Shown: positions 47,563-64,000 of the stretch, one piece after another
Layout: every line of letters starts with the position of its first letter
Numbering within the stretch: position 1 is the first letter of the stretch
Notes under the pieces: generated by a model
Database searches by the model: none
Told to the model about the DNA's origin: nothing
What the model saw: only the letters and a program-made list of their open reading frames with translations
Made by a program: the position numbers and the translations under genes
IMG/VR virus record: IMGVR_UViG_3300012007_000007
Location: 99,434-163,433 of that record
Strand: one strand, 5' to 3'
DNA: 64,000 nt
Source of the DNA: a virus
Taxonomy: Duplodnaviria > Heunggongvirae > Uroviricota > Caudoviricetes

Positions 47563-47570
47563 ACCAAAAA

Positions 47571-47586: not shown

Positions 47587-47622
47587 AAGATGCCCCGGAA
47601 CCGGTCCGGGGCGTTTTCGCCG

Positions 47623-47907
47623 CTATTTCTTGTATATCCGTCGCATCACCAGCAGCCCCGTCGTCAGTATCGTCGCTACCGTGTAGTTGAAGTACAGCGG
47701 CCACTGCCATTCCCCGGTCACGCAGTTGGTGTACAGGACGAAAGCGCAGCTTCCGAGGTTACCTACGTAGGCCAGCGCGAAGAACCCGTACGATAGCCCG
47801 GTATCCTTCTTCTTCCACGCCTTGCGGACCTGAGGGGCCAGGTTGAATGCGAATGCCACCGCACCCGCACCTCCCAGAAGCCAGAACAGAATCCCTACCG
47901 CGTCCAT
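47623..47907 (-). CDS. PQ-loop / SemiSWEET-like small membrane protein (94 aa)
   Basis: 3 TM helices; PQVRKAWKKKDTGLS motif. Confidence 0.4.
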   Translation of the reverse strand: MDAVGILFWLLGGAGAVAFAFNLAPQVRKAWKKKDTGLSYGFFALAYVGNLGSCAFVLYTNCVTGEWQWPLYFNYTVATILTTGLLVMRRIYKK

Positions 47908-49154: not shown

Positions 49155-49168
49155 TTGGCCAGAATCCT

Positions 49169-49184
49169 TTCGAGTTGCGCAAAT
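49169..49184 (-). promoter_or_regulatory. class-III motif variant (TAAGCTAGATTTGCGC)
   Basis: ~30 nt upstream of ATG 49154. Confidence 0.35.
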
Positions 49185-49189
49185 CTAGC

Positions 49190-50974
49190 TTATTTCCCGA
49201 TAAAAGTGTCAAGGTCCTCCTTGAACACGCACCAGTCGGGGAACGCGTAATCCCCGTGCGACCGAAGTATCATTATCTGCCTCGGCCTCGGAGGCTCCGG
49301 CCAGTTGAATATGCAGTCCGTCAGGTATATCAGACCGTCATACTTGTAGCGCTCCGGACCCAGCTTCCGCAGGACGCAGTCGGGGTCGGTCCGGCCGCCA
49401 CCGTATATCGCCATGTCCCTTATCGACCTCGGGGTGTCGAATACCGGGCTGCACACGGCGTCCCAGTACACTATGTCTACCGAGAGCCCGTTCACGATGT
49501 TCTCCATCACCGTCAGACAGTTGAGTATCGCGTCGCCCTGGTACATCGAGCCGCTCACGTCTATGCAGAACAGTATCCTCTGCGTCTCCTCGTACAGGTT
49601 TCCCGGGGCAATCATCCCGTACCTCAGGTACTTCCTGTTGCGGCGGCTCCAGCTCGGGTTGAACTCCTCGTCCTGCACGCTCGTCATGAACCGGCGGAAC
49701 ATGGCCTCCCGGTCGACCTTCACACGGTTCGCGTTCCTCAGCATCAGTGGCAGGGGGCCGCGCATCCTGTCGAACATTCCCTTGTCCAGCGCATCCAGCA
49801 CCTTCGCCGTGGTGTTGTCGCTCGCCACCGAGTCGTTGTCCCACCTGGCCAGGTCGCCCGCCGCGTTGGACAGCGAGAAGTACTGCGACATTCTCTCCAT
49901 GTCGTCCTTTGGAGAATCTCCCCGTCCTTCGCCGGAAGACCCGTCGTCGACCGGCTCGCCGCCTTCACCCTCCTCGGTACCGCCGTCGGAATCGCCACCT
50001 TCCGTAGAGTCGCTGCCGCCGTCCGAATCACCCTCGCCGGAATCTCCCGGGGAACCGTCGGGAACCGAGCCACCGTCCTGGCCCTCGCCGGATGAACCGT
50101 CCGCGTCTTCACCGGGAGAACCTTCGCCGCCATCGTCGAATGGTTCGCTGCCGGACTCTTCACCGGGTTCTTCCTGGCTTTCACCGCCTTCATCGGGTGA
50201 ACCTTCGCCGTCGCCATCGCCGCCGGACTCCCCTTCGCCGGAATCACCCTCGTCGCCTCCCTTGCCCTTCTCCTCCCGGCTCTTGCCCTCTCCGCCGGGC
50301 TCGTCGCCGGTTTCCTCTGAGTCGTCCCCGTGCTCGCCGGATTCGCCATGGCTTCCGCCCGACTCTTCCTGCTTCTGCTCGGTCTTCTTCCCGGATTTCC
50401 CCGGGCTGTCCGAGGTTTCCTTCCGGGTTTCCCGGGAGGTTTCCCGGGAATTCTCCTCCCGCTCCTCGTCGTCGGACTCCTCGGGTTCCTGGGAGGCGTA
50501 CTCCTCCTTCAGAATCTCGAACAGCTTTTCCAGCGTAAGGTCGGTTTCCGGGTGGAACCCGTGCTTCTTCAGCACCGGCCAGTGGTTCCAGTAGCTCGGG
50601 AATATGCGGTTGACTATCTCCAGGTTGTTTCCTATCGAAGTATCGACTACCTTCCTGGCATACTCGGCGACGACTATGTCGCTGGCCAGCTTCAGCATGG
50701 ACAGCGGTTCCTGCTTGCGCTTGTCGCAGTGGTGCAGCGCAATCTTCAGGCACTGCATGTACACCACCGCCCCGAGCAGGGAAGGTTCCAGGCGGGTGAC
50801 GAAGTCCACGTTGTACTCGAGCACCGGCATTCCGCCGTCAACGCCGGTACGGACGGTAACGGAAGTGTCCTCGGTAGGTATGCAGTTCGCCGACATGTAC
50901 ACCGGGAGAAGCCCCGGTGCCGTCTTCGACATCAGCAGCACTGCCTGTCTCATCGCGGCGTTGGCCGCTTCCAT
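49190..50974 (-). CDS. CobT-like von Willebrand factor A domain protein with long acidic linker (594 aa)
   Basis: C-terminal vWA MIDAS motif FCIDVSGSMY; ~200-aa D/E/G/S-rich linker; start set at MEAANAAM, since the upstream 87 codons are Arg/Gly junk. Confidence 0.6.
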   Translation of the reverse strand: MEAANAAMRQAVLLMSKTAPGLLPVYMSANCIPTEDTSVTVRTGVDGGMPVLEYNVDFVTRLEPSLLGAVVYMQCLKIALHHCDKRKQEPLSMLKLASDIVVAEYARKVVDTSIGNNLEIVNRIFPSYWNHWPVLKKHGFHPETDLTLEKLFEILKEEYASQEPEESDDEEREENSRETSRETRKETSDSPGKSGKKTEQKQEESGGSHGESGEHGDDSEETGDEPGGEGKSREEKGKGGDEGDSGEGESGGDGDGEGSPDEGGESQEEPGEESGSEPFDDGGEGSPGEDADGSSGEGQDGGSVPDGSPGDSGEGDSDGGSDSTEGGDSDGGTEEGEGGEPVDDGSSGEGRGDSPKDDMERMSQYFSLSNAAGDLARWDNDSVASDNTTAKVLDALDKGMFDRMRGPLPLMLRNANRVKVDREAMFRRFMTSVQDEEFNPSWSRRNRKYLRYGMIAPGNLYEETQRILFCIDVSGSMYQGDAILNCLTVMENIVNGLSVDIVYWDAVCSPVFDTPRSIRDMAIYGGGRTDPDCVLRKLGPERYKYDGLIYLTDCIFNWPEPPRPRQIMILRSHGDYAFPDWCVFKEDLDTFIGK

Positions 50975-50988
50975 TCTGCGGGAATCAA

Positions 50989-51306
50989 TCAAAACACTTT
51001 CCTGTATGGCTGAATTGTGTACTGCACCCTGCGTGTTCCGATTCCCGGCCGTCCGCCGGAATAGTATACCTCGCTCTCGATTGCGGCCACCCTTCCCGGA
51101 TACAATTTCTTGTTTCCCCTGACGGCCCTCACGGCGCGCTCGAACATCGGCTCGTAGTCGTAATCCTTGTATCCCGGGTATGTCTTGACCGGCTGGTACC
51201 AGATTGTAACCCCGCGCCTGCGGTGGCATTTCCATCCGAAAGTAATCTGGCGCAGCCTATTGCTTATAGCATTATGGAAAAGTATTCTCTTTATCTTGTT
51301 CAGCAT
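50989..51306 (-). CDS. hypothetical protein (105 aa)
   Basis: AAGGAAAGACTAT RBS; internal ATG (residue 20) of ORF 50989..51363. Confidence 0.45.
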   Translation of the reverse strand: MLNKIKRILFHNAISNRLRQITFGWKCHRRRGVTIWYQPVKTYPGYKDYDYEPMFERAVRAVRGNKKLYPGRVAAIESEVYYSGGRPGIGTRRVQYTIQPYRKVF

Positions 51307-51351
51307 ATAGTCTTTCCTTGCAACAAAAAATGTGGCCTCGGTGGCCACATT

Positions 51352-51364
51352 CAAATATAGCAAA
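51352..51364 (-). promoter_or_regulatory. class-III motif
   Basis: TTTGCTATATTTGAA; here the hairpin TGTGGCCACCGAGGCCACA follows the motif. Confidence 0.4.
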
Positions 51365-51378
51365 TTTGCAAGGTTCCG

Positions 51379-51678
51379 TTAGAATATGTATGCCTTGCTG
51401 AGTCCGAGCTTGTCGCAGCCTTTCGCCACGTATTCCTTCATGAAGAGCACGTCGCCCAGGTAGACCTTCTCGCCCAGGTACTTGCGGAGCATGTGCTCGA
51501 TGCACTCGTCGACGGTTCCTATCTGTCTCACGCGTGGACCGGTGAAGCCCCACTCGGCGAACTCGCTCACGCCCAGCTGGACAAGCCCTTCCTTCAGGCA
51601 GTCCGACATTGTCATTATTTCACCTACGCTCGCATTTCTTCCGATAATGCAGGCTGCCGCTTCTTCTACGCACATCAT
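51379..51678 (-). CDS. hypothetical protein (99 aa)
   Basis: ORF track. Confidence 0.5.
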   Translation of the reverse strand: MMCVEEAAACIIGRNASVGEIMTMSDCLKEGLVQLGVSEFAEWGFTGPRVRQIGTVDECIEHMLRKYLGEKVYLGDVLFMKEYVAKGCDKLGLSKAYIF

Positions 51679-51682
51679 ATCT

Positions 51683-52042
51683 CTACCCCTTTATATAGTC
51701 TGCTGGAACAGCACCCGCTTTCTCTGGCGGCCATTCAGTTGTTCTTGTTGCCGTAACCACCGGCGTGTCCACCGACCAGTGGTCTCCTAGCCAGACAGGG
51801 TTCTGCGCCGGTTTCCCGGTACCGCCGTCTCCTGATGGAATCACCCTGGTAAAATCCACCACGCCCCCATTGCTCGCCTGCTTACCGGAAAGCTCATCGA
51901 GAACGGCCAGCTTCGCCTTTGCCTCGATTAGTCCATTGGTGAAAGAGTCAGGACAAGTCCCAATCCTGGTCATCGGCTCGGCAACCGCTATCAAGTCCTC
52001 CAGCGCATCCCTGGCGCACTTGAACATCAAATTGTATTCCAT
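51683..52042 (-). CDS. hypothetical protein (119 aa)
   Basis: ORF track. Confidence 0.5.
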   Translation of the reverse strand: MEYNLMFKCARDALEDLIAVAEPMTRIGTCPDSFTNGLIEAKAKLAVLDELSGKQASNGGVVDFTRVIPSGDGGTGKPAQNPVWLGDHWSVDTPVVTATRTTEWPPEKAGAVPADYIKG

Positions 52043-52073
52043 ATGTCCAAATATCCCATGTTAAGTTATGCCA

Positions 52074-52088
52074 CAAATATAGCAAAAA
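52074..52088 (-). promoter_or_regulatory. class-III motif
   Basis: TTTTTGCTATATTTG ~30 nt upstream of ATG 52042. Confidence 0.45.
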
Positions 52089-52178
52089 CCACCTACCGTG
52101 AATTGCCAGATGCAACCTGTCAGAAGAAGGAGCATGAGCACCATCCCCGCTACCAGTATCGCATACGCTATCTTACTT

Positions 52179-53024
52179 TCAGGCATCCGGCACCTCCACC
52201 AAGTAAGTTCCCGCTTCCCTGTTCAGCATGAACGCGTTCCTTTCCTCGGGATAGCCGAGCGGGTTGCACACTATCCTGACGCGGTTCCCGGTAGGAGCGG
52301 TGTACACCGTGTCGAACTGGTTGTGCGTGTGGCCACACTGCCATACCGTACCGTCGTCCAGCATGTCGAGGAACCTCTGCGCGTCGAAATAGAACATCGC
52401 CGTCACCGGGTCATCCCGGTACACCTCGGCAACCCCCATCTGCAACGGGCAGAAGTGCGTCATGACTATCCGGGGCCTCGCCTTGCATACAACCTCGAGA
52501 TTCTCCAGCTCCCTCGCCAGGATGTCCGGGAACACCTGGTTCCTGTAGTTCCACAGCCTGCCGTCGAACCACCGGTTGCTCCAGAAGTCGAGCGCGTTGA
52601 ACGGCTCTCCGTTGTCTACGCGGTAGCCCAGGTCGCATACGCCCATCGTTCCTCCGAACAGCCCTGACTCATCGACCTGTCCGTCAAGGATATGGACGTT
52701 GGGGCAGCTTTCCGAGATGCTCTCCCGGACATACTCCATCCTCTCCTCGCTGGTGTCGAACAGCCTTCCCGGGAAATCCCGCTTCACCACCAGGTCATGA
52801 TTGCCGAACACCACGTAGACCTCCCGGTACTTCCGGGAGATGAACCGCAGGAACGAAAGCTGTACCCCCTCGTAGTTGGCGACATCGCCGGCTATGCATA
52901 CCGCGTCGGCAGGGGTGAAGTAGTTGCCGTACAGTGCTTCGAACATAGGGTGGAGAACGGCATCGCTGTCGCTCAGTGCCGAATAGAAATCTACATGTAT
53001 ATCCGAAATGAGGAATACTTTCAT
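52179..53024 (-). CDS. calcineurin-like metallophosphoesterase (281 aa)
   Basis: ISDIHVD, GDVANY, GNHD, GHTH motifs; GGAGG RBS 9 nt upstream. Confidence 0.7.
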   Translation of the reverse strand: MKVFLISDIHVDFYSALSDSDAVLHPMFEALYGNYFTPADAVCIAGDVANYEGVQLSFLRFISRKYREVYVVFGNHDLVVKRDFPGRLFDTSEERMEYVRESISESCPNVHILDGQVDESGLFGGTMGVCDLGYRVDNGEPFNALDFWSNRWFDGRLWNYRNQVFPDILARELENLEVVCKARPRIVMTHFCPLQMGVAEVYRDDPVTAMFYFDAQRFLDMLDDGTVWQCGHTHNQFDTVYTAPTGNRVRIVCNPLGYPEERNAFMLNREAGTYLVEVPDA

Positions 53025-53060
53025 GGATGCGCCTCCGGGAACATTGCTTGCCCCAGGATG

Positions 53061-53076
53061 CAAATATAGCATTTTT
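53061..53076 (-). promoter_or_regulatory. class-III motif
   Basis: AAAAATGCTATATTTG ~40 nt upstream of ATG 53024. Confidence 0.45.
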
Positions 53077-53080
53077 CTGG

Positions 53081-54184
53081 CTAGAGGCTCTTCAAGGGAG
53101 TCAAAATTCCGTCCTGGACCCAGTCGTTCAGGTAATTGGCATCGATGACATTGTACGGGAGGCTCCCGGATACGGAATTGACTGCCGGCTTTCCCCAGTC
53201 AGGGAAGTATTTCACGATGTTGTATACGGCGATATCGGAATCGAGCGACATGCTCTCCAGCTTCCAGGAAATCACCTCGGTGGCATCGGGAATTGCGTTG
53301 TCCGATACCAGACAGTATCCAATCTTGTTTCCCGGTAGGTGCCAGGCGAGTAGCTTGCCGGCCTGCGGAGTGCGGGCCTCTTCGACCAGTCCGTTGTCCT
53401 CCACGAGTATGCCGCCCTCCAGCATGTCCTCTATCATGGAGTTGGGGAACAGCTGCGCACTGAGCCTGCTCCTGTTCAAGGTCAGTCTGCGCTTGAAGTT
53501 GGCGTCGTTGCACTTGCAGCACTTCGGCTCTATGCCGAACCACCGGGAGAACCCGTAAAGCGCCCACTGGAGGTTGTCCTTGTGTACACGGGATACCGCG
53601 GTAACTCCCGGCTTGGCGTTCGGTGCAAGCAGCAGGACGGAACCGTCGTTGTCGATACGGTTCTTCATGCCGTTGTTCAGTGTCAGCGGAGTGTCGTTAA
53701 CGACGGTAATCTTGTAGTTGGAACTCGAGTTGATGCGGTCGCACCACCTGGTGAACCTCGGGCCGTGTGTCTCCTCGTTGTCCTCCCGCTCGGGGGAGTA
53801 GGCGAGGTAGGCGTGAATCATCTCGTGGATGAGCACCTCGTCGAGTGTCTTCGGAGTATAGTCGAAGGCGTTGGACAGCTTGATGCCGCAATCCACCAGT
53901 GATGACTGGTTGAATGGCCCACGCCTCCAGGTGGTGGCACAGTATCCGAGCTTCTTGGTGGAATTGCAGAATCCTATCGGCATTGTCCTGGGAAGATACC
54001 CCTGGTCGCCCCCGAAGAATTGATTGCGGAACTCGGTATACTTCCGGTCCAGGTAGTCCTTGCCGTACTCGGCGGGTGTCTTGGCAATTTCGGGTTCAGC
54101 CATTTCGAGCAGGGTAAATTCCCTGCATTCCATGTAGCCCTTCCTGAGGGCCTCCATCAGCGATGTGTCGATTGTATTGGCCAT
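53081..54184 (-). CDS. SprT-like zinc metalloprotease domain protein (367 aa)
   Basis: LIHEMIHAY (HExxH) followed by ETHGPRF, typical SprT spacing. Confidence 0.6.
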   Translation of the reverse strand: MANTIDTSLMEALRKGYMECREFTLLEMAEPEIAKTPAEYGKDYLDRKYTEFRNQFFGGDQGYLPRTMPIGFCNSTKKLGYCATTWRRGPFNQSSLVDCGIKLSNAFDYTPKTLDEVLIHEMIHAYLAYSPEREDNEETHGPRFTRWCDRINSSSNYKITVVNDTPLTLNNGMKNRIDNDGSVLLLAPNAKPGVTAVSRVHKDNLQWALYGFSRWFGIEPKCCKCNDANFKRRLTLNRSRLSAQLFPNSMIEDMLEGGILVEDNGLVEEARTPQAGKLLAWHLPGNKIGYCLVSDNAIPDATEVISWKLESMSLDSDIAVYNIVKYFPDWGKPAVNSVSGSLPYNVIDANYLNDWVQDGILTPLKSL

Positions 54185-54223
54185 TTCTAGCCAGTTTATC
54201 TGTATGCACCATACGTATGGTAC

Positions 54224-54481
54224 TTACACGTCGATTATTGTGCCGTATGCACCTACGGCCTGCATACGCTGCTCGGGACAGCGAGTATTTACTGTCTTGT
54301 CGCAGGAATAGCCGCAATGCGGGCACCTGCATGTATAGTTCACATAGTCAAACGAGCCGTGACCTTGACGGGTGACCTTGGCCTCCCCGAGGTCGGCATC
54401 GAAAATGCAGTCGCATTCCATGCACACGAAACGAATTTTCTTGGTAATACCTTCGCGAACGATTTCCATGTGTTGTTTCAT
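54224..54481 (-). CDS. zinc-ribbon protein (85 aa)
   Basis: CMECDC ... CRCPHCGYSC; internal ATG of ORF 54224..54523. Confidence 0.45.
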   Translation of the reverse strand: MKQHMEIVREGITKKIRFVCMECDCIFDADLGEAKVTRQGHGSFDYVNYTCRCPHCGYSCDKTVNTRCPEQRMQAVGAYGTIIDV

Positions 54482-54507
54482 CCTTTTGGACACACCGTTA
54501 AACAATA

Positions 54508-54533
54508 GGCTATGTCCACCCAAAGAGTTGCTT
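54508..54533 (+). repeat. 28-bp repeat copy C (GGCTATGTCCACCCAAAGAGTTGCT)
   Basis: 24/25 identical to 35941 copy; direct orientation. Confidence 0.55.
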
Positions 54534-54561
54534 GCAGGATTATTGCAGCCCCGTTACACCT

Positions 54562-54852
54562 TTATTTCTTTTTCCAATGGTCTTGACCTACTTCATGATA
54601 TCCAAGAGATTCCAAAACCTGTCTGTGTTCGGGGCTACTAACGTGCATAATAATACCATTGACATGTCCCCTGCGTGAAGCATTAGTAATAGTCTCCGAT
54701 GCTTCCCTAACACACTGCAATATACTTTTCTTCTTCACTGCATCTACAATGGCATTAACGATGCCATCATACTTGAAATTGGACTTGTCTACACGCTTTC
54801 CAGATTTCAATTCCTCTAAGATTTCATTATCAACGGCATCTGCGCTAGTCAT
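54562..54852 (-). CDS. hypothetical protein (96 aa)
   Basis: ORF track. Confidence 0.5.
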   Translation of the reverse strand: MTSADAVDNEILEELKSGKRVDKSNFKYDGIVNAIVDAVKKKSILQCVREASETITNASRRGHVNGIIMHVSSPEHRQVLESLGYHEVGQDHWKKK

Positions 54853-54946
54853 TTGTTACTCCGATGTATTGAAGTTGATAGATTTCATTTTTCAGCAGCA
54901 CGTTGGGTTAACATACCCAAACAATATCTATTCCGGATGCGTGTAG

Positions 54947-55029
54947 CGGAAGGCGAGGGACTCGAACCCCCAAGCGTTTTACCGCGGCGGATTTCAAGTC
55001 CGCTGACTTACCAGTTAGCCTAGCCTTCC
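54947..55029 (-). tRNA. tRNA-Ser (anticodon UGA), long variable arm
   Basis: hand-folded cloverleaf; acceptor GGAAGGC/GCCTTCC; anticodon loop CTTGAAA; T-loop GGTTCGAGTCC. Confidence 0.65.
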
Positions 55030-55036
55030 TGTTTCC

Positions 55037-55225
55037 CTAGTAGTGGGCGTGCGAAGAGAGAAGTTCAGCCTTCTCCCTCTCCATGCGCTCCCTCTGCCGG
55101 GCAAGCTTCTTGATGTCTATTCCGCAGGACTTGGCCATGCTCCTGGCCTTCTTCTGCTGCTTGGCCCAGCGGGCCTGCTTCTGCTCCTCGGTTTCCTCCG
55201 GGAGCTCTTCCCTGTGCTTCTTCAT
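55037..55225 (-). CDS. small Lys/Glu-rich protein (62 aa)
   Basis: ORF track. Confidence 0.4.
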   Translation of the reverse strand: MKKHREELPEETEEQKQARWAKQQKKARSMAKSCGIDIKKLARQRERMEREKAELLSSHAHY

Positions 55226-55233
55226 ATGTCCCC

Positions 55234-55701
55234 CTAGTCGTTCACCCCGACGACCACAATCTCGTCTTCGGTAAAATACTCGTTAAGTTTGTCCCTGTTG
55301 GCCTGCATAGTGTTCCACATGCGCTCGACCACGTCAATAGGAACCTTGCGCTCCCTGCCTTCCATTCTCCGCATGGCGACCTCGGGCGGAATGTCGAACC
55401 AGTAGGCCCTGGACATTGAGCCGGCCGGGCAAAGGCCCAGGTAGGTCCTCCAGTCCCTCACGTGGATATTGGTGGCGTCGCACACCACGTCGCCGCGCAG
55501 CATGCCCTCCGATACCCTAGAACGGAATATGGCGAATACCTTGGAATCCAGCTCCGGGTAGAGGTATTCCTCCGTACCGGTCAGTTCCTTCCGGATTCCA
55601 TCGGACGACACTACGGTAGCCCCGGTAGATTCCGCGAGCTTCCTCCCGTACGTAGACTTGCCGCACCCGGGAATGCCTATGAGAAGATGCAGAGTATTCA
55701 T
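55234..55701 (-). CDS. polynucleotide 5'-kinase (T4 Pnk kinase-domain-like P-loop kinase) (155 aa)
   Basis: GIPGCGKST Walker A; RKVPIDVVERMWNTM closely resembles T4 Pnk KAVPIDVLRSMYKSM. Confidence 0.65.
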   Translation of the reverse strand: MNTLHLLIGIPGCGKSTYGRKLAESTGATVVSSDGIRKELTGTEEYLYPELDSKVFAIFRSRVSEGMLRGDVVCDATNIHVRDWRTYLGLCPAGSMSRAYWFDIPPEVAMRRMEGRERKVPIDVVERMWNTMQANRDKLNEYFTEDEIVVVGVND

Positions 55702-55719
55702 CTGATTGTTCCTTTTTAG

Positions 55720-55792
55720 TAGTCCTACCCGGATTCGAACCGGAGTTACCGGAATGAGAATCCGGCGTCCTGGGCCTCTAGACGATAGGACC
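55720..55792 (-). tRNA. tRNA-Glu (anticodon CUC)
   Basis: hand-folded; strong similarity to bacterial tRNA-Glu backbone; loop TTCTCAT. Confidence 0.6.
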
Positions 55793-55807
55793 GTGTGTTA
55801 AATTTAG

Positions 55808-55881
55808 CTCCGGTGGACAGACTCGAACTGCCGAATCTCCTGATTACAAATCAGGCGCTCTACCAACTGAGCTACACCGGA
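55808..55881 (-). tRNA. tRNA-Thr (anticodon UGU)
   Basis: hand-folded; loop TTTGTAA; T-loop TTCGAGT. Confidence 0.6.
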
Positions 55882-55887
55882 ATGGAA

Positions 55888-55961
55888 TCGGGGTAGCCGG
55901 ATTCGAACCGACGACATCCTGCTCCCAAAGCAGACGCTCTACCAGGCTGAGCTACACCCCG
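55888..55961 (-). tRNA. tRNA-Pro (anticodon UGG)
   Basis: hand-folded; loop TTTGGGA. Confidence 0.6.
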
Positions 55962-55967
55962 GGAACC

Positions 55968-56228
55968 CTAGTCTTCTTCGACTGGTTCCGTCAGCTTGGT
56001 AGCGATTACCTTCGCGTAGTCGGCCACCGTGCGGATACGTTCGAGCTCGGAATCGAGAATCTCAATCTCGAACTCGTCTTCCATCGCCATCACGATTTCC
56101 ACGATGTCGAGAGAGTCCGCGCCGAGGTCGGCAGCGATTTCGGAATCGTCGTCGATGTCGGAAACGTCAAGTTCCAGCTTGGCGGAAATTACGTTCTTCA
56201 CGCGTCCGAGAAGTTCATTGCTTGTCAT
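55968..56228 (-). CDS. acyl carrier protein (86 aa)
   Basis: GADSLDIVEIVMAMEDEF phosphopantetheine-attachment motif; AGGAGA RBS. Confidence 0.65.
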   Translation of the reverse strand: MTSNELLGRVKNVISAKLELDVSDIDDDSEIAADLGADSLDIVEIVMAMEDEFEIEILDSELERIRTVADYAKVIATKLTEPVEED

Positions 56229-56244
56229 ATACTCTCCTTGTAAA

Positions 56245-56541
56245 TCACTTGACTTCTTCGACTTTCTGCGGTCCGGCCAGGCGGTGCATGTCCGCATACA
56301 GTCTTTCCCGGTATAGTCCGAGGTCCTTCAATGTCTTTTCCAGTTCGTCGAACCTGCATTCGACGACACGGTCTCCGGATTCGATGCGGGCCTTCTCCTT
56401 ATCCATGTCGTACCGTATCCATGTTACGGCCAGGTCCTTCGGGTTGACGTACTTGGTCGTCGTAACGTCGTACGAGTGCATGTTTTGGAGGTAACCTTCG
56501 ATGAACCGGAATTTCCAAAGAGCAAAGTTTGTCAAGTCCAT
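56245..56541 (-). CDS. hypothetical protein (98 aa)
   Basis: ORF track. Confidence 0.5.
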   Translation of the reverse strand: MDLTNFALWKFRFIEGYLQNMHSYDVTTTKYVNPKDLAVTWIRYDMDKEKARIESGDRVVECRFDELEKTLKDLGLYRERLYADMHRLAGPQKVEEVK

Positions 56542-56562
56542 TGTTCATTATCCCCAAATTGC

Positions 56563-56651
56563 CAGTTTATGTAGAAGAGGGAGCAGGATTCGAACCTGCG
56601 AGGGCCCGTGAGGGCCCCACCGGCTTAGCAAGCCGGCGCCTTTAGCCTCTC
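56563..56651 (-). tRNA. tRNA-Ser (anticodon GCU), long variable arm
   Basis: hand-folded; loop TTGCTAA; 89 nt. Confidence 0.6.
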
Positions 56652-56670
56652 GGCCACCCCTCCGATGAAA

Positions 56671-57450
56671 TTAGTTCAGCGACAGGTCGGGAACTACCCT
56701 TTCCACGGAGCGGCTGTCGTTGAACTCGCTGCCACGATAGCGGTGAGTGTCGTACTTCGGGTCCTGCCCTATGATGCCGTAAGTCATGGAATCGGCCATG
56801 CCGGATGTCTTGCACACGCTGAACAGCGCGTCGCTCATGAACGGGTACCGCTTCAGCTCGTTGAGGAGACCGTCGAGTATGAAGTCGGCGAACCTGGTGT
56901 AAGCGCCGCTGTAGCACAGCAGACCCTTGTTCAGCCCGACCAGGAACAGCTTCATCTCGGAATGGTGGGCGAGGTACTCGTAAACTCCCTCCGTAATCTG
57001 CGGATAGGTCGGGGAATACATGTCGTCGAGCACCACTACACCGTCCGGCTGCAGTACCTTCGACGCGATGTCGAGGTCGCACTTCACCCCTTCCAGGGAA
57101 TGGGCCCCGTCGATGTGGATGAACTGCATGCACTTTCCGTATTCGCGGGTGAACGGGGTGTAGCATGAAAGGTTGAGGTATCCCTTCACGTGCTCCCCGT
57201 CCAGCGTGGTATGCGAAAGCACGTTCTCCCTGGTGGTCTGGTAGTGTCCGGCGTCGCATTCGACGTAGTGGAACGTGTCGGAAGTGCTGCTCGCTATGAT
57301 GACGGCCGTCTTCCCGTCCCACGTCCCTATCTCCATCGTGTTCGCCGGCTCGATGAAGCGTAGAAAACAGTCCATCAGGACCATGGCCTCGTAGTTGTTG
57401 AAGCCCTCTATGTCCGCGACAGTGTACATGTTGAATATATCGTTCTTCAT
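56671..57450 (-). CDS. class I SAM-dependent methyltransferase (TylF/MycF-like fold) (259 aa)
   Basis: EIGTWDGKTAVIIA (motif I-like), IHIDGAHSLEG, DGVVVLDDM. Confidence 0.5.
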   Translation of the reverse strand: MKNDIFNMYTVADIEGFNNYEAMVLMDCFLRFIEPANTMEIGTWDGKTAVIIASSTSDTFHYVECDAGHYQTTRENVLSHTTLDGEHVKGYLNLSCYTPFTREYGKCMQFIHIDGAHSLEGVKCDLDIASKVLQPDGVVVLDDMYSPTYPQITEGVYEYLAHHSEMKLFLVGLNKGLLCYSGAYTRFADFILDGLLNELKRYPFMSDALFSVCKTSGMADSMTYGIIGQDPKYDTHRYRGSEFNDSRSVERVVPDLSLN

Positions 57451-57747: not shown

Positions 57748-57864
57748 ATGCGGCCCGGGAGCGCCGGGATATCCCGCGGCGTTTTCCCGGTTGCCCCGGG
57801 AGCATACCGCCGGCATGCTGAGCATCCCGGGTATTGGCCGGGACTCACTTACATCACCGCATAG

Positions 57865-57939
57865 TGCCCCTGGATGGGCTCGAACCACCGACCACTCCCA
57901 CCAATGGCGGGAGATGCTCTACCGCTGAGCTACAAGGAC
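57865..57939 (-). tRNA. tRNA-like gene with non-canonical anticodon arm (8-bp stem / 3-nt loop, or 9-nt loop)
   Basis: acceptor, D-arm and T-arm (GGTGG-TTCGAGC-CCATC) fold; anticodon region CTCCCGCCATTGGTGGGAG does not give a 7-nt loop. Confidence 0.4.
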
Positions 57940-58184
57940 ATGGACCGGGGTACTAGCTAGCTCTCCCCCGGCGATTGAAGCAGCCGGCTGCCATGCAGGC
58001 TGACGGGCCCACATGGCCCGCCTTCACGATTTCCCTCCAATCAATTGGAAACCGGGAACGGTAGGCGGGCGCAGTCCGGTATCCCGGATGGCTGGCCCCT
58101 GGGCTGTTCCATGCCCGCCATGACTTTGTGCCTCATGGTGGCGACCATCGCATTTCCCGCGGTCGACGGGGCATGCGGTAGTAG

Positions 58185-58260
58185 TGGACGGTCTGGGGCT
58201 CGAACCCAGGGCCTAGTGGTTATGAGTCACCTGCTCGCATACCAACCGAGCTCACCGTCC
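58185..58260 (-). tRNA. tRNA-Met (anticodon CAU; elongator, or Ile2 lysidine type)
   Basis: hand-folded; perfect acceptor GGACGGT/ACCGTCC; loop CTCATAA. Confidence 0.55.
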
Positions 58261-58266
58261 GTAAAC

Positions 58267-59025
58267 TTATGCTTCAATTAACACATCATCTGATTCAATA
58301 TATCGATAGAACGTGCAACCTAGCAGCTCTTTGATGATACGTGTTCGTTCGATATCCTTGTCCTGACATACGCCATTAGTGTAATGGTGCCTGTGTTCAT
58401 CGTATTCAACGACTATATTACGTTCTTTATCATAAGCATCCAATGAATAACGGCCAACTCGAATCTCACCACCATTCATTGCATGCTGTAAATTCCAGCC
58501 ACGCTCAGCATTGAGCCTATCGAAATATTCACACGCTTTGATGCTGTATCGCGGACCAGCATTGGTTGCGTTTATATATTGCCGCGTCGATTCGCTAATT
58601 TTCTTCTTGGTTTCATCAGAATGGGTTCTTCCAGTGAATGTTCCCTTCAACTCTCCGCTAGCATATCGGTTTTCTAATGTAGTCACATACTGTTTGACCC
58701 TGGCATCAGTGAATTGTGTCAATCCCTTGTTCCATGCACTTCCAATCAGCTTTCGCTTTCCATCAACTACAACGAATCTAATCGCCTTATCGGGGTGAAC
58801 ACTCTTCTTATGTGCATCGAGAAGCCGTCTGGTTTCCATTACGCAATCACAGAATGGACACTTCCAGTCATTAGACCTGCGCCGACGAGTTGCTGGAGGA
58901 TGTCCTGTCAGTTTACCGTTCTTGTTTGATTGCTTGCCAATATTGCGATATTGGCAAGCTCTCGAGCAGAACCTCCCAGACCCGTACGAACCATCATGCT
59001 CAGCACCACATTCTTCGCATATCAT
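58267..59025 (-). CDS. putative freestanding homing endonuclease (N-terminal zinc fingers + NUMOD3-like motif) (252 aa)
   Basis: CEECG...CSRAC and CPFCDC...H..H fingers; FTGRTHSDETKKKISESTRQY NUMOD3-like; embedded in the tRNA cluster like T4 segB. Confidence 0.45.
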   Translation of the reverse strand: MICEECGAEHDGSYGSGRFCSRACQYRNIGKQSNKNGKLTGHPPATRRRRSNDWKCPFCDCVMETRRLLDAHKKSVHPDKAIRFVVVDGKRKLIGSAWNKGLTQFTDARVKQYVTTLENRYASGELKGTFTGRTHSDETKKKISESTRQYINATNAGPRYSIKACEYFDRLNAERGWNLQHAMNGGEIRVGRYSLDAYDKERNIVVEYDEHRHHYTNGVCQDKDIERTRIIKELLGCTFYRYIESDDVLIEA

Positions 59026-59042
59026 ATCTTTTATCCTTTTAG

Positions 59043-59119
59043 TGCCACGGGGTGGATTCGAACCACCATCTCACCTGGTCGCGAACCAAGGATGCGCTCT
59101 GCCGTTAAACTACCGCGAC
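59043..59119 (-). tRNA. tRNA-like gene with insertion between D- and anticodon stems
   Basis: T-arm GGTGG-TTCGAAT-CCACC and acceptor fold (2 G-U pairs); the standard anticodon stem does not pair. Confidence 0.35.
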
Positions 59120-59120
59120 A

Positions 59121-59774
59121 TGGTGGGAACAGCGGTATCCTAGCTTCTAGAAAGCGTCACCGCCCGGTTCCCTCTCGGTGTCCTTGCAGGGACTGTACTC
59201 ATTCCGCCGATGCGGAAACCATCCGGCTATCTGCCAACCGGCTAGGCCACTGTAACCAGTGTGGCCAACGGGCCCTTAATGCTCCACGTTACCAGGACGT
59301 GGCCGCACTCTGTCTTGTTTTACGTCGTTTCGACGGGCGCACCCGACGGCCGGACTTGCGAGAGCATACCTCGCTCGTCCATATTTGGCTTCCCCGCAAT
59401 TTACACCTAGGCTAATCACGGTTACCCAAAATCATAATCTCGCTGGCGCATTACCGGGCTTCCCCGAACGGTACCCCGGCCATTATTCCGCCACTTATGC
59501 TACGGCACAGCCCCATAGGATATACCTGCGGGCATCTTCCATCATCTCCGTCGAGACTTTTCAAACACACTGGGCCTATTAGCGGGCCCTTACCGCTTTA
59601 CGCTCGCGTGGCCGGTACGCGGCTGCACGCATGCAACCTTTCCCTGAACGGGATTGGCATTATGGCACTTGGCCAAGCTCATCAAATGCATGACCCCAGA
59701 TTCCTGTCGGGCCAAGAAACTTACCGCACGAATATCCAGGAATCTCAGTCGGGCGGCAGCAATCCAATGTCCTA
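59121..59774 (-). ncRNA. candidate structured ncRNA (GC-rich, ORF-free, ~650 nt) with RNase P RNA P3/P4-like motifs
   Basis: minus-strand hairpin GCGAG-guaugcu-CUCGC followed by AAGUCCGGCC; later ACAGAGUGCGGCC, CCUGGUAACG; near the 3' end GGGAACCGGGCGG complementary to GUCCGG; ends ...CCCACCA. Confidence 0.3.
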
Positions 59775-59847
59775 CTCCGGCTGCCGGACTCGAACCAGCG
59801 ACCCCGTCATTACGAATGACGCGCTCTACCAGCTGAGCTAAGCCGGA
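59775..59847 (-). tRNA. tRNA-Thr (anticodon CGU)
   Basis: hand-folded; perfect acceptor TCCGGCT/AGCCGGA; loop TTCGTAA. Confidence 0.6.
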
Positions 59848-60135
59848 AAAATGGTGGAACGCCCCGGTCTCGATTGTTCACAGGAAGTACCAGAGCCTTG
59901 ATAATGCCGAGCGGCCTTGCGTCCACCAAATGGTTTCCCGGCGGGGCGTAATATCTTCAATGTAAAAATAGGAACGCCGTTTGCCGGGAATAAAGGGGGC
60001 ACCTCCCGGGGAGTAATAATTTAACCCGTAAGAAGGAACTCCGTATGGGAGGTGCTAATGTCTTGGCGCGGGCCCAACCGGAGGAGAAAGGGCCCGCGCC
60101 GTCGCCGCGGCATGGAGGGACCGCGGACTTGTTCG

Positions 60136-60208
60136 TAGCGGGAGGCGGATTCGAACCGCCGACCTCGAGGTTATGGGCCTCGCGAGCTACCAACTGCTCC
60201 ATCCCGCG
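60136..60208 (-). tRNA. initiator tRNA-fMet (anticodon CAU)
   Basis: C1 x U72 mismatch, A11:U24, GGAGCAGTTGGTAGCTCG closely matches bacterial tRNA-fMet; loop CCCATAA. Confidence 0.6.
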
Positions 60209-60439
60209 TCGTAAAAAGGTTGGTACGGGACTGGCAAGGAGTTTTCGTCGAATCAACCAAATAAGGAGTATCATGGCAATGAATGAACCATGATGTATGG
60301 CACCTCGCCCGTCCCGTACCGAAAAGGTATTGCCTGGATATCGTATCCAGGAACGCACGGCTTAACCTGAGCCGTGTGAGAAAAAACGCATCCGGACTGT
60401 CAATCTGCTTGGGAAACTCTGGGATTTCCCGGTATGCCA

Positions 60440-60455
60440 TAAATATAGCAAAAAA
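60440..60455 (-). promoter_or_regulatory. class-III motif, likely promoter of the tRNA operon
   Basis: TTTTTTGCTATATTTA ~230 nt upstream of tRNA-fMet on the minus strand. Confidence 0.4.
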
Positions 60456-60604
60456 TGACGAGCGTGACAATAAATTGAGTAATATTTCAGAAAAATATGG
60501 CTCAAACACTTGTCAATACGCTCATTACGCAGAGTGAGCTTGGTGAATCAGCACTGTTTAATGAATGCGGAATCACCTTGCTCGTGCTGTTGACGATTAC
60601 TTAA

Positions 60605-61565
60605 ATGTCACATGTCCACTGAATGGGGCACGGTTCATCCCGGTAATGTTCACTTTTAACTACCCTGAAGTGTTGCCATTCCTCTGAATGGGAACGGGTC
60701 CACTAACATATTGCCCGTATCGGGGGCCGGACTGGTGTTGCTACCTCACAAAATGGAGGTAGGACCACCTATTTAATGTTGCTGGCTCAATCTTGTGCTG
60801 GTGTAGTCACCCCTCAAAATGGGGGTGGGTCCACCCTGGGCTTTCTCGCCGCTGGCGCCCTTGTCGGTGTAGCCACCCCTCAAAATGGGGGTGGGTCCAC
60901 CAGAGAGAGTAATTGCCGTATGAATTTGTACGGTGTAGTCACCCCTCAAAATGGGGGTGGGTCCACCAACATCGGTACGCTGAACGTAACGAGCGAGGGG
61001 TGTAGTCACCCCTCAAAATGGGGGTGGGTCCACCATCCTACAATAACGGGGCAATTACCGTCAAGGTGTAGTCACCCCTCAAAATGGGGGTGGGTCCACC
61101 GGTTATCCAGCCATTTATCCATGCCCTTCTGGTGTAGTCACCCCTCAAAATGGGGGTGGGTCCACCCGCAGGTGAAATAGTATTCTTTTCCTGGTTGGTG
61201 TAGTCACCCCTCAAAATGGGGGTGGGTCCACCCGACACAGCAGCCGTTGTAGGCGCCGTCATGGTGTAGTCACCCCTCAAAATGGGGGTGGGTCCACCAA
61301 GCCGGGGGTCATTAAAAACCTTACTAGAGGTGTAGTCACCCCTCAAAATGGGGGTGGGTCCACCTATGACTTCCTTGGTATAGTCTTCGATGCCGGTGTA
61401 GTCACCCCTCAAAATGGGGGTGGGTCCACCACTTACACGAGAAGATGCGTTCAAGCTCCTGGTGTAGTCACCCCTCAAAATGGGGGTGGGTCCACCCGGG
61501 GGCGAGTACAATTACTATGGCCTCTAGGTGTAGTCACCCCTCAAAATGGGGGTGGGTCCACCTTG
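60605..61565 (-). CRISPR. CRISPR array: 12 intact 36-bp repeats (GGTGTAGTCACCCCTCAAAATGGGGGTGGGTCCACC as read on the plus strand) + ~3 decayed repeats at the low-coordinate end; 11 spacers of 30-31 bp
   Basis: exact 66-bp periodicity from 60803 to 61565; repeat 2 has a T-to-C variant; decayed units at ~60611, 60677, 60743 keep the 66-bp phase; internal hairpin CACCCC-TCAAAAT-GGGGGTG in the repeat. Confidence 0.9.
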
Positions 61566-61575
61566 GTTTTCATAA

Positions 61576-64000
61576 TTACTTGCACTTCAATGCGTTAACG
61601 AACTCTGTGTCCTTAAATTTTACCCTATTCCTGATACAAAAGGCTGCATTGACATCGGCATTTTGAAGCTTACCATGCAAGGAACATTCCGGATTTCCAC
61701 ATACAAACTTTCGTCCGTCACGGAAATTCACCTTCTTAGTTAGGCACTGTTCCTGGGTCAGTTTTACATCCTTCTTTGCACATTTACCATATCCACATGC
61801 ATGACATGTTTGAGATGTCTTTTTAGCGGATACTTCCTTGTACAGGGTTCCTCGACGAGTTACGATACGTTCGACATCATGCTTTAATAGGGCAAGGTGC
61901 ATAGCGTTCTTGGTATAATGGTCGGACCATTCGCTGTCGCGTCGACGCAAACCTTCCTTAGTCGGTTCACAGTACAATGTAACGATTGAGCCGTTAATAG
62001 AGATTTCCTTTGGAGCATGCCAATCAGTCGTATCCTTGCAATTCGACATGATTTCCTGCTTCGTTACCGTTCGACCAAAGTCAATGACAGCCGTATTGCT
62101 GTTCTTGGAAGCAGTTAACTTGTAACCTTCATTAGGACCCATGTGCCATGTCTTAGAAACCGTTGTATACAGCGTTGTGAACTTCCCGGTCTTCTCCAAT
62201 TCATTGAGGTTAAGATTTTCCATGGAAACAATATCGGCCTTGGAGAATGTCTTGGTGTTGAGCAACTCGCATGACAGGATGAAGGTGCTTTCCGAGCGAA
62301 TCTTTTTGGTCAGTTTAGCGTATTCATCATTCAGTTCAGCCGCAATCTTGGACCGCTTTGCGAAGATTTCCGTCATGGTATCGTGCTTGCGGTCCCACCT
62401 GGCCTGCTCATAGAAATAATGTCGACGATTCGCAATGAGCTGACGGTGGAACTTGCGCCACAGCTTGGTGTGACCGATAATGGCAATCTGCCGGTCCGTA
62501 TAGAAAGGAGTGCCGTCGGCATTGGTCCTGTGGATAAGCCAGGCGAACATGGGGGCACATGGGTCGCTTACCGGAATCCAGTCGTGCTTCGCATCAGTCG
62601 GGGAGCCATCACGCATAGCAATAGACAGCATGGCGATAAAGTTGTAATCACCACTCTCGTATTCGTCTACGAGACGCTTCAGGTCATCCCGGGTCGACAC
62701 AGTTGATGTCGTGGTGAACAGTTTCGTCTCCGAATGGTCCTGATAGTAGGCGTGCACTGCTTCGTGCCAGTCTACCATGTCTGGCCCGATGTCCTTAGCC
62801 TTGATTGTAGTAATGAGGCCAGCGACTGCGATGCCGGCGTCAATGCCTACCGTCTTGGCCAGGTCAATATCCTGGATATGTTCCTTGTCGAGCGAAGGTA
62901 CCTTGCGAGGTACATCGTATGGTATGTTCAGTGTCATCGGAGGAATCCCCGGATGGTGCATATCAGTGCACACCATTTTAGACACATTCACGTCACCATT
63001 GAACACGATAGTGCCTTTCGGACACACTTTCGATAGGGCGAACAGATTTTCGGGGTAATAGTTGGTACCCTTATCCGAATGAGCCCTGATTAGAATGTCA
63101 ACAGTTCCTCCCGGTAAACCGCGGGCAGTCACTTTCCAGTCGAAGTAGGTACTGTCAAGCGTGGAGCCACGGTCGACCACAAGTTCAGGGAGGGTGATGG
63201 GAATGACTTTGTTCGGGTTTGGTACGTTCTCGATTACTGCCTTCTTGAATTCGGAATAGGCATCGAGATAGATTTCGAGCGCCTTGTCAGCTAGCTTTTC
63301 GAATTCGTCAAACGTAATATCGAGTGCTTCACCTTCAACCTTAGTTTTTAGTGTTTTCTTGTTGTCCTTCCCGAACGCCTTCTTCAATTCCGGCATCTCG
63401 CCATTGATTGCTTTCAGTGTCTGCGGACCGCATACAGTCAATACTTTAACTATCTTTCCGTAGTTAAAAACATCCAGGCAACTTTTCTTGGCTACAGACC
63501 GTACAGCAAACGCCCACTTCGTATCGGCATGACCGTTGACTGCCTTGGACAGCATGGAAACTCGCTGAGTATAGCCCTTCATCATGCCGTCGACCTTGGC
63601 ACAGACACATTCATTCCAGTATGTGGCAGGTGTTTCTACCGTGATTCCGGTCTCTTCGGAAATAGCATTGTCAATCATGGAGATGAATTCGGCGCGGTCA
63701 CCGAGTATAGGGGAATTCGGGTTGAACAATTCCCTGGTCGGGCGTGCATTGGGACCGTTTCCGATAGAAGCATTCACCGTATATTCAGTGGTACCGCGAA
63801 TAATAGTATATTTTTTCTCGGCATTCAGGTATTCTTCGGGAATGCCCTCACAGTAGATATCGAACACGGTCATATTCACTGTGCCGTCGTTTGTAATGAC
63901 GGTGAGCTGGTCGAAGAGTCTTTCCTTGATGCGTTCGAATGCAGCCTTGATTGCCTTGTTTGCACCGATAACACAGGATGCCAGACGCTTGGCTCCCCGT
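61576..64000 (-). CDS. cas12: type V CRISPR effector, Cas12/TnpB-like RuvC nuclease (at least 807 aa; 5' end beyond window)
   Basis: RuvC-I TVGIDAGIAVAG, RuvC-II IVSMENLNLNEL, zinc finger CHACGYGKC...CGNPEC, RuvC-III NADVNAAFCIRNR (D-x-NAA-x-N-I class); reading frame stays open to the window edge (no stop upstream of the GTG at 63879); the array starts 10 bp after the stop. Confidence 0.8.
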   Translation of the reverse strand, partial: RGAKRLASCVIGANKAIKAAFERIKERLFDQLTVITNDGTVNMTVFDIYCEGIPEEYLNAEKKYTIIRGTTEYTVNASIGNGPNARPTRELFNPNSPILGDRAEFISMIDNAISEETGITVETPATYWNECVCAKVDGMMKGYTQRVSMLSKAVNGHADTKWAFAVRSVAKKSCLDVFNYGKIVKVLTVCGPQTLKAINGEMPELKKAFGKDNKKTLKTKVEGEALDITFDEFEKLADKALEIYLDAYSEFKKAVIENVPNPNKVIPITLPELVVDRGSTLDSTYFDWKVTARGLPGGTVDILIRAHSDKGTNYYPENLFALSKVCPKGTIVFNGDVNVSKMVCTDMHHPGIPPMTLNIPYDVPRKVPSLDKEHIQDIDLAKTVGIDAGIAVAGLITTIKAKDIGPDMVDWHEAVHAYYQDHSETKLFTTTSTVSTRDDLKRLVDEYESGDYNFIAMLSIAMRDGSPTDAKHDWIPVSDPCAPMFAWLIHRTNADGTPFYTDRQIAIIGHTKLWRKFHRQLIANRRHYFYEQARWDRKHDTMTEIFAKRSKIAAELNDEYAKLTKKIRSESTFILSCELLNTKTFSKADIVSMENLNLNELEKTGKFTTLYTTVSKTWHMGPNEGYKLTASKNSNTAVIDFGRTVTKQEIMSNCKDTTDWHAPKEISINGSIVTLYCEPTKEGLRRRDSEWSDHYTKNAMHLALLKHDVERIVTRRGTLYKEVSAKKTSQTCHACGYGKCAKKDVKLTQEQCLTKKVNFRDGRKFVCGNPECSLHGKLQNADVNAAFCIRNRVKFKDTEFVNALKCK

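Follow-up and report, generated by a model that had tools for sequence, protein, structure and literature searches.

A structured non-coding segment within a viral tRNA array

The window analysed here, a 64,000-nucleotide (nt) stretch of IMG/VR virus record IMGVR_UViG_3300012007_000007, carries 13 minus-strand transfer RNA (tRNA) genes between positions 54946 and 60208 (ARAGORN), and within this run lies a segment (59120-59774) that is bounded exactly by tRNA-Thr(cgt) and by a tRNA-like element (59042-59119), all on the minus strand. The segment holds a strand-specific, strongly constrained, multi-domain RNA structure that is fused to the tRNA-shaped element, and this RNA is our subject. The original prediction, made from the letters of the window alone, had placed a structured segment free of open reading frames (ORFs) inside a tRNA cluster, and in each of these respects it is borne out by the flanking genes, the coding analysis and the folding energies given below; it had also read the segment as a virus-encoded ribonuclease P (RNase P) RNA, which we take up separately. 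Positions are window coordinates or, for the minus-strand transcript, seg 1-655, where seg 1 is window position 59774 and seg 655 is 59120 (window = 59775 - seg). The flanking features are as follows.

59774..59848, minus strand: tRNA-Thr(cgt), with its 3′ end adjoining the RNA's start (ARAGORN; Rfam tRNA model, 63.1 bits)
59042..59119, minus strand: tRNA-like element of 78 nt, directly after the conserved core of the RNA, called Ala(cgc) (Rfam tRNA model, 39.2 bits)

The longest minus-strand ORF in the segment encodes 47 amino acids (aa), and plus-strand ORFs of 161 and 114 aa run antisense through tRNAs. One plus-strand frame contains a single stop in 217 codons, a degree of openness reached or exceeded in 7% of first-order Markov simulations. 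Variable columns of the homologue alignment are spread evenly across its codon positions (21/26/22), and the majority of insertions and deletions among homologues are not multiples of 3. Given the unremarkable openness of the frame, the even spread of variable columns and the indel lengths, we conclude that the region is non-coding, and on these grounds, together with the lack of any Pfam match to the near-open frame, a protein-coding reading of the plus strand was rejected. The segment as a whole folds with a minimum free energy (MFE) z-score of -2.87 (20 shuffles), and its 284-nt core gives z = -3.54 on the minus strand, where none of 200 shuffles folds as well, whereas the plus strand of the same core gives only z = -1.22; folding thus favours the tRNA strand.

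A small family with a constant 3′ core and variable 5′ modules

Seven further homologous loci were found in metagenomes, namely L036 (IMG/VR, 75.5 kilobases (kb)) and L037-L042 (six contigs from the Joint Genome Institute (JGI) or GenBank). The successful search took the near-stop-free plus-strand translation as a pseudo-protein query, which let several degenerate DNA patterns be scanned together. Provenance is known just for the gut-metagenome record of the window, which is 100% identical to a 95.8-kb gut-metagenome scaffold (record WOLF17-1, run SRR948090), and for the IMG/VR viral label of L036. Distant-mode blastn against GenBank phages returned no similar DNA, exact 16-18-mer scans of IMG/VR and GTDB genomes gave chance matches or the already-known L036 only, and GTDB representative genomes contain no copy of the RNA. 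None of 19 IMG/VR loci reached through the neighbouring endonuclease-like protein carries the RNA, and a route through the methyltransferase gene led to three short contigs that were uninformative, as they show little of the upstream side.

Alignment of the eight members divides the RNA, which has a total length of about 540-650 nt among them, into the following parts.

59684..59770, minus strand: module E1 (seg 5-91), a long-hairpin element of ~87 nt, found by nhmmer in L036 (6157-6071) and L041 (4714-4635) at 85-88% identity
59543..59659, minus strand: module A (seg 116-232), two hairpins, GCGUG..CACGC and GGGCC..GGCCC, followed by the strand that forms the 5′ side of the long-range helix
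59436..59558, minus strand: long-range helix, seg 217-227 with seg 329-339, which joins module A and the core and encloses module B
59447..59533, minus strand: module B (seg 242-328), enclosed by the long-range helix
59120..59403, minus strand: conserved 3′ core of 284 nt (seg 372-655), shared by 8/8 members

The core has a mean column identity of 94%, and its copies are 91-93% identical to that of the window. At the DNA level, identity of the coding genes in the same loci is 66-75%, except that the sole gene in common with the closest relative, L039, reaches 87%, and tRNA identity ranges from 69 to 97%; the core is therefore better conserved than the protein genes around it and than most tRNAs nearby. 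Large insertions occur in L041 and L039. In L037 the RNA consists of the core and a 46-nt extension only, directly after tRNA-Pro, and tRNAs flank the RNA in every locus with visible flanks.

The 5′ modules come and go, and helices in modules A and B carry compensated changes. Module A is 89-100% identical in L036, L038, L039 and L040, although its copies in L038 and L039 are partial because the contigs end there. In the diverged copy of L041 the hairpin GCGUG/CACGC becomes GCGAG/CUCGC with pairing kept, and GGGCC/GGCCC becomes CCCGG/CCGGG, the latter in a by-eye reading of the alignment, as the automatic count misaligned this hairpin. Within module B, the helix CCGGG/CCCGG is replaced by CUAGG/CCUAG in relatives. 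The long-range helix shows an A-U to G-C compensation in L041, and in L040, which lacks module B, the same helix is closed by a 5-nt loop; closure of this sort is classically seen where a genuine helix caps a domain that varies.

Three relatives carry a genuine transfer-messenger RNA (tmRNA) in this variable part. It lies between E1 and module A in L036 (5708-6069, minus strand, 101 bits) and L041 (4272-4633, minus strand, 85.5 bits), so that E1 is located there between tRNA-Thr and tmRNA, while in L040 the tmRNA (3741-4106, minus strand, 101.4 bits) directly follows tRNA-Thr. The encoded tags are ADNAFAYAVAA (L036), ADNDAYACRMAA (L040) and ADNAFAYSAAA (L041). ARAGORN and Rfam detected no tmRNA in the window, nor is there one in the 20.8 kb read of the same scaffold, and in the window E1 is joined to A, leaving ~460 nt fewer than in L036, L040 and L041 (the tmRNA and a 100-nt conserved piece).

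The interval between tmRNA and module A holds further ORF-free sequence. A conserved piece of ~100 nt is found there in L036 (5610-5709, minus strand), L040 and L041, another of ~110 nt is common to L040 and L041, and L041 alone has inserts of up to ~260 nt. Rfam recognises none of these extra pieces, and the window contains none of them.

Covariation within the core

The curated structure of the core comprises 61 pairs, and 99.2% of the 488 cells of the alignment that these pairs define are standard pairs, compared with 97.1% in shuffles, none of 500 of which reaches the observed value. Changes on both sides of a helix occur at 5 pairs and in 8 cells (reached by 2/500 and 0/500 shuffles, respectively), and controls in which the structure was slid along the alignment gave 34-47% pairing and no compensatory change. 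G-U pairs are numerous in the core helices. Two local elements of the core are set out below.

59351..59381, minus strand: nested hairpins UGGAC..GUCCG around GCGAG-GUAUGCU-CUCGC, corresponding to the short hairpin followed by AAGUCCGG in the original prediction
59125..59172, minus strand: 3′-terminal hairpin GGGAAC..GUUCCC with GGCGGUG..UACCGCU, a 20-nt loop containing UCUAGA (59146-59151), then ACCAU

In the nested hairpins four pairs are changed on both sides (A2 columns 23-53, 27-49, 32-44 and 33-43). The terminal hairpin includes the motif that had been assigned to the 3′ strand of P4, and its pair 244-269 is A-U in five members, G-U in two and G-C in one. An invariant hairpin loop, UCCUGGUAA, holds UGGU, the complement of a 3′-terminal ACCA, and the 3′ end of the RNA itself reads ACCA(U) in 7/8 members.

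Other pairings were considered and set aside. For core columns 54-120, a long-range pairing of columns 54-72 with 90-108 proposed by RNAalifold was rejected with four broken cells; a local model with a GGG-UNCG-CCC hairpin, which has one broken cell, is preferred, though the region is ambiguous. The pairing between E1 and module B in the single-sequence MFE structure is not kept in L036 (hand check of the alignment) and was likewise rejected, and the closing helix of that structure, UUGCGGGGA/UCCCUGCAA, is weakly compatible with the homologues and was not retained.

A tRNA-like element is fused to the core

The tRNA-like element follows the core with no spacer in 8/8 homologues, scoring 29-53 bits with the Rfam tRNA model in the homologues, and its cloverleaf contains 8 pairs with compensatory changes. 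By eye, the anticodon stem is 8-9 base pairs (bp) long and bulged, with an Ala-type anticodon loop UUCGCGA; six members have C33, and the loop of L041 is 10 nt long. The acceptor stem has G4-U69, not G3-U70. ARAGORN called the element in 6/8 loci, variously as Ala(cgc), Ala(tgc) or Ser(gga), and an ordinary tRNA-Ala(cgc) is already present in the same genetic element 7 kb upstream. Given the bulged and extended anticodon stem, C33, the L041 loop, G4-U69, the inconsistent calls and the second tRNA-Ala(cgc), the tRNA-like element is not an ordinary decoder.

Two loops of the RNA and its tRNA-like partner are palindromic, and both palindromes are retained through double substitutions: UCUAGA of the core loop is UCCGGA in L042, and UCGCGA of the tRNA-like loop in the window is matched by CUGCAG elsewhere. 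Self-complementary loops are a dimerisation route of several natural RNAs, and the pattern suggests that this RNA may self-associate via kissing loops.

The constant fusion also bears on the most serious alternative to a free-standing RNA, namely that the segment is a cis-acting precursor, a leader or spacer that guides how the tRNA-like element, the tmRNA and the tRNAs fold, are processed in order or are stabilised, and that has no function after cleavage. Such a role would suit an RNA that is never separated from the tRNA-like element by a spacer and that has a tmRNA for a neighbour in three relatives, and a long structured leader had also been offered in the original prediction. Ordinary tRNA spacers in the same clusters, however, are a few nt long and not conserved, and a 284-nt core at 91-93% identity, above that of most tRNAs, exceeds what a processing signal usually needs; moreover, 5′ domains and tmRNA are gained and lost while the core persists. 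We hold a purely cis-acting role to be rather unlikely, though it deserves more weight than the other alternatives considered below.

The segment is not an RNase P RNA

The original prediction proposed that the segment encodes a virus RNase P RNA with P3/P4 signatures, whose P4-type catalytic core would mature the 5′ ends of the element's many tRNAs. All of the motifs quoted in its support are present in the minus-strand transcript in the stated order: the hairpin GCGAG-GUAUGCU-CUCGC, AAGUCCGGCC, GGGUGCGCC, CGAAACG, ACAGAGUGCGGCC, CCUGGUAACG and GGGAACCGGGCGG. The location in a tRNA cluster fits this proposal, as do the autonomous core unit of ~330 nt in L037, near the size of an RNase P RNA, and short motifs reminiscent of CR-I/CR-V and GGUAACG.

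We searched Rfam 15 at gathering score, and then at E<=10 with permissive filters, on window positions 58900-60300 and 59100-59790. At gathering score the search returned tRNAs only. The covariance-model search, named in the prediction as its check, found no RNase P, tmRNA, intron, GOLLD or ROOL match, and no credible one to another family, in the segment at E<=10, and the homologous loci likewise have no match to the RNase P models of Rfam (types A, B, archaeal, T and others).

Comparison across the eight homologous sequences, the second proposed check, revealed compensatory changes in local helices and none in the proposed P4. As drawn (GUCCGG with CCGGGC; A2 columns 49-54 with 237-242), P4 is paired in 83.3% of cells, compared with 84.9% for shuffled partners, it contains 0 compensatory changes, and its pair 53-238 is unpaired in 6/8 sequences. 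Both of its strands instead belong to local, covarying helices. The 5′ strand, AAGUCCGG, is the 3′ strand of the helix UGGAC/GUCCG that encloses the short hairpin; this helix has two covarying pairs, and helix and enclosed hairpin together covary with pair types GC/UA/UG, CG/UG/AU, CG/GC and GC/AU. The 3′ strand, GGGAACCGGGCGG, is the 5′ strand of the 3′-terminal hairpin, with its covarying G-C/A-U/G-U pair.

The sequence motifs fare no better. The U of AAGUCC (CR-I A-G-U-C, bulged U) is near-invariant in RNase P RNAs, and here AAGUCC itself varies, to AAGCCC in L036 and L038 and to CAUUCC in L039. Dinucleotide shuffles reach the counts of 6-, 7- and 8-mers in common with E. coli M1 RNA in 45%, 21% and 15% of cases, respectively, so the resemblance to RNase P RNA is no more than chance. 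In its link to tRNA biology, its conserved unit of ~280-330 nt and a few short motifs the segment resembles bacterial type A RNase P RNA (RF00010), but it differs in having no covariance-model match, no P4 pseudoknot and no conserved CR-I-like motif. We conclude that, as far as sequence analysis can go, the RNase P reading is refuted, and we regard it as extremely improbable. Two outcomes had been named as telling against it, and they part company here: no significant Rfam match was found, while the expected lack of conserved structure in relatives was not, as the structure is conserved. This combination of conserved secondary structure and no Rfam family match supports the fallback of the original prediction, another non-coding RNA.

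An intron was also considered and rejected, as there is no Rfam group I or group II intron match in 57900-60300 and the flanking tRNAs are intact.

Comparison with known RNA classes

GOLLD and ROOL are RNAs of unknown function that occur in phage or prophage tRNA islands (PMC5737381). In GOLLD the 3′ region is conserved and the 5′ region varies, sometimes with a tRNA in the linker, and ROOL averages 581 nt, is known from rumen and gut environments, lies near tRNAs in phage-like elements and has few highly conserved nucleotides (PMC5737381). Both form RNA-only oligomers assembled partly via kissing loops (PMC12286853), and these assemblies are nanocages.

The RNA described here is similar to GOLLD (RF01998) in being a large structured RNA of the tRNA-island niche with a conserved 3′/variable 5′ split, and the tmRNA between E1 and module A in relatives may be compared with the GOLLD linker tRNA. 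In contrast to GOLLD, which exceeds 800 nt, it is ~540-650 nt long, forms a tiny family found so far in gut-type metagenome contigs and has an obligatory 3′ tRNA-like element. With ROOL (RF03087) it has in common its size, gut setting, vicinity to tRNAs and phage-like elements; it differs in that its core is 94% identical across members, where ROOL has few highly conserved nucleotides, and in that it gives no model match. True homology, with the RNA as a highly diverged member of GOLLD or ROOL, would explain the identical niche in tRNA islands of phage-like elements, a length of 540-650 nt near the ROOL average, and the GOLLD-like split, whose variable part holds a gene of the tRNA family (tmRNA). 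The GOLLD and ROOL covariance models, however, gave no match at E<=10 under permissive filters in the window or in six homologous loci, and we consider such homology very improbable.

Of the other classes, tmRNA (RF00023), a stable and translation-related RNA with a tRNA-like Ala-type domain, recalls the RNA and its tRNA-like element, and a copy lies directly upstream in three relatives, but the core has no tag frame and no tmRNA pseudoknot pattern recognised by any tmRNA model. In eukaryotes, the MALAT1/mascRNA pair illustrates 3′-end formation by tRNA-processing enzymes at an abutting tRNA-like structure, and the tRNA cluster of phage T4 contains small stable RNAs of unknown function and ~120-140 nt. 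Both are comparable to the present case in that a non-tRNA RNA abuts a tRNA or tRNA-like structure, although processing here is presumed by analogy; the T4 RNAs are shorter and unrelated in sequence. A full-text literature search found no published description of an RNA like this one.

The host element and its gene neighbourhood

Downstream of the RNA, and in the tRNA cluster region 46303-57450 (minus strand) beyond it, where tRNAs are interspersed with genes of translation and RNA-repair type, the following genes were annotated.

58267-59025, minus strand: NUMOD3-motif protein of 252 aa with a Cys-rich N-terminus, probably a homing endonuclease of the free-standing type, inserted after the tRNA-like element and before tRNA-Met
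55234-55701, minus strand: AAA_33 kinase, in the tRNA cluster region
52179-53072, minus strand: calcineurin-like phosphoesterase, in the tRNA cluster region
47907-49154, minus strand: CCA-adding enzyme, in the tRNA cluster region

The same region also encodes a methyltransferase, an acyl-carrier-type protein and a MoxR-type AAA_5 ATPase, the last partnered by a DUF2201 metallopeptidase-like protein, and a SprT-like protein is encoded around the tRNA cluster; relatives additionally encode RtcB and PTH2. Distant relatives of the NUMOD3-motif protein are scattered across unrelated viral contigs. The 1-kb contig L037 has a group I intron match (47-331, minus strand; 45.5 bits, E = 6.7e-9), just below the gathering score of 50, which lies ~240 nt downstream of the tRNA-like element, the place occupied by the endonuclease-like gene in the window, where there is no intron match.

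Two further features of the array were noted. A second ORF-free spacer of 286 nt (59849-60134, minus strand), between tRNA-Met and tRNA-Thr, contains GC-rich hairpins with CUCCUCC-type loops; it has a weak, sub-threshold match to alphaproteobacterial ar14 (20 bits, E = 0.34), and ~70 nt of it are 79% identical in L036. A tRNA at 57864-57939 (minus strand; Rfam tRNA model, 43 bits) was called Asn with the unusual anticodon ATT, and the same call was made in L039 (1017-1092).

On the other side of the array lie a cluster of regularly interspaced short palindromic repeats (CRISPR) and a Cas12-like gene.

60600-61571: CRISPR array whose 36-nt repeat, GGTGTAGTCACCCCTCAAAATGGGGGTGGGTCCACC, occurs in 12 good copies at a period of 66 and in degenerate copies towards the tRNA side
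61576-64000, running off the window: Cas12-like gene for an 835-aa protein, beside the CRISPR array (full gene at L020 4943-7450)

The sole Pfam match of the 835-aa protein is a Cas12f1-like TNB domain, and it has no PDB sequence match. An identical protein is encoded on a 222-kb contig. In the repeats of relatives (51-72% protein identity, contigs up to 294 kb) the hairpin GGTG...CCATTT.G.GG...ACACC is kept via covarying changes. Array and gene together have the appearance of a compact type V system belonging to a phage-like element. On the source scaffold the Cas12-like gene and its array are flanked on either side by tRNA genes (L020 2275-4824 and 8818-14080), which number at least 30 in 20.8 kb, and one relative, L032, has 34 tRNA genes in 3.7 kb.

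A candidate RNA family of phage-like tRNA islands

We think it probable, with some reservation, that the product of the segment is a large non-coding RNA, structured and built from several domains, whose family is not represented in Rfam 15; it would be punctuated by tRNAs and of the same kind as GOLLD and ROOL. Its transcript has a candidate start upstream of the first tRNA of the array.

60442..60470, minus strand: promoter-like site TTGTCA-17-TATATT, sigma-70-like and TG-extended, lying upstream of tRNA-Met, the first tRNA (consensus scan, 10/12 matches)

The gctatattt motif of this site recurs in the relative L026, and we infer that 60470-60442 may act as the promoter from which the RNA would be co-transcribed with the tRNA array. 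Release of the RNA would then fall to tRNA-processing enzymes, by the same tRNA-punctuation logic as in MALAT1/mascRNA and for the stable RNAs of the T4 tRNA cluster: if RNase P cut the tRNA-like element at its 5′ end, the RNA would be left with the 3′ end ...GUUCCCACCAU, and an RNase Z-type cut after tRNA-Thr (tRNA-Pro in L037) would generate its 5′ end. The released RNA may be stable and trans-acting, and, speculatively and by analogy with GOLLD and ROOL, could serve a translation-related takeover programme of the element; tRNAs surround the RNA, a tmRNA is adjacent in relatives, and genes for CCA-adding and RNA-repair-type enzymes are nearby.

Several observations weigh against this interpretation. 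Five relatives found via the Cas12-like protein (60-72% protein identity, contigs up to 294 kb, with CRISPR arrays and tRNA clusters) do not contain the RNA by nhmmer, tblastx or the core covariance model, and the RNA is therefore dispensable for the lineage. Covariation backs ~8 helices, but most pairs never vary, since there are only 8 near-identical sequences, and parts of the fold are uncertain, such as core columns 54-120 with their competing models. The high identity could partly reflect recent exchange among related elements. The evidence from the palindromes is post hoc and weak, as ~1 in 27 such outcomes is expected by chance given the substitutions; they are partly explained by an Ala-type (NGC) anticodon, and the tRNA-like loop of L041 is not palindromic. 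The analogy with GOLLD and ROOL is grounded in context and architecture only, with no Rfam match. Finally, the phage nature of the host element is plausible but uncertain: when 18 larger ORFs of the window were scanned, neither a capsid gene nor a convincing terminase turned up, and the FtsK-like, DUF932 and SprT-like matches would also fit a plasmid or an integrative and conjugative element.

Some of these points would suit a segment that is non-functional or acts at the DNA level, as a gene in decay, a co-conversion tract dispersed by the neighbouring endonuclease-like gene, or a protein-binding or replication site. The gene for the 252-aa NUMOD3-motif protein stands right after the tRNA-like element, the relatives reached through the Cas12-like protein are without the segment, the conserved 6-bp palindromes resemble restriction sites, and the very high identity could mean recent transfer. 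Against this, substitutions keep pairing (99.2% of cells) and are compensatory or G-U-compatible, folding is strand-specific, the endonuclease gene is missing from every homologous locus with a visible downstream side, and there is neither a coding signature nor a tblastx match to the Cas12-route relatives. We judge a DNA-level or non-functional origin improbable and retain the structured RNA as the preferred interpretation.

A bolder extension is that, beside GOLLD and ROOL, this RNA constitutes an independent third class of large ornate RNAs in the tRNA islands of phage-like elements, whose near-invariant 284-nt core, fused tRNA-like element and palindromic loops would allow self-assembly or docking onto the 3′ ends of tRNA or tmRNA. 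Docking is suggested by the complementarity of the UCCUGGUAA loop to ACCA and by the RNA's own ACCA(U) 3′ end, and we put this extension forward tentatively, as a rather unlikely possibility. If true, it would imply a new RNA-only or ribozyme-type activity in the takeover of translation.

The analysis corrects an attractive but wrong reading, in that there is no evidence here for a virus-encoded RNase P RNA. Large and highly conserved RNAs of bacteria and phages are rare, and in the past such RNAs have proved to be ribozymes or remarkable assemblies. Another family in the niche of GOLLD and ROOL, unrelated to them and here linked to the tmRNA of a mobile element and fused to a tRNA-like element that probably does not decode, would provide a new comparison point for the function of tRNA-island RNAs.

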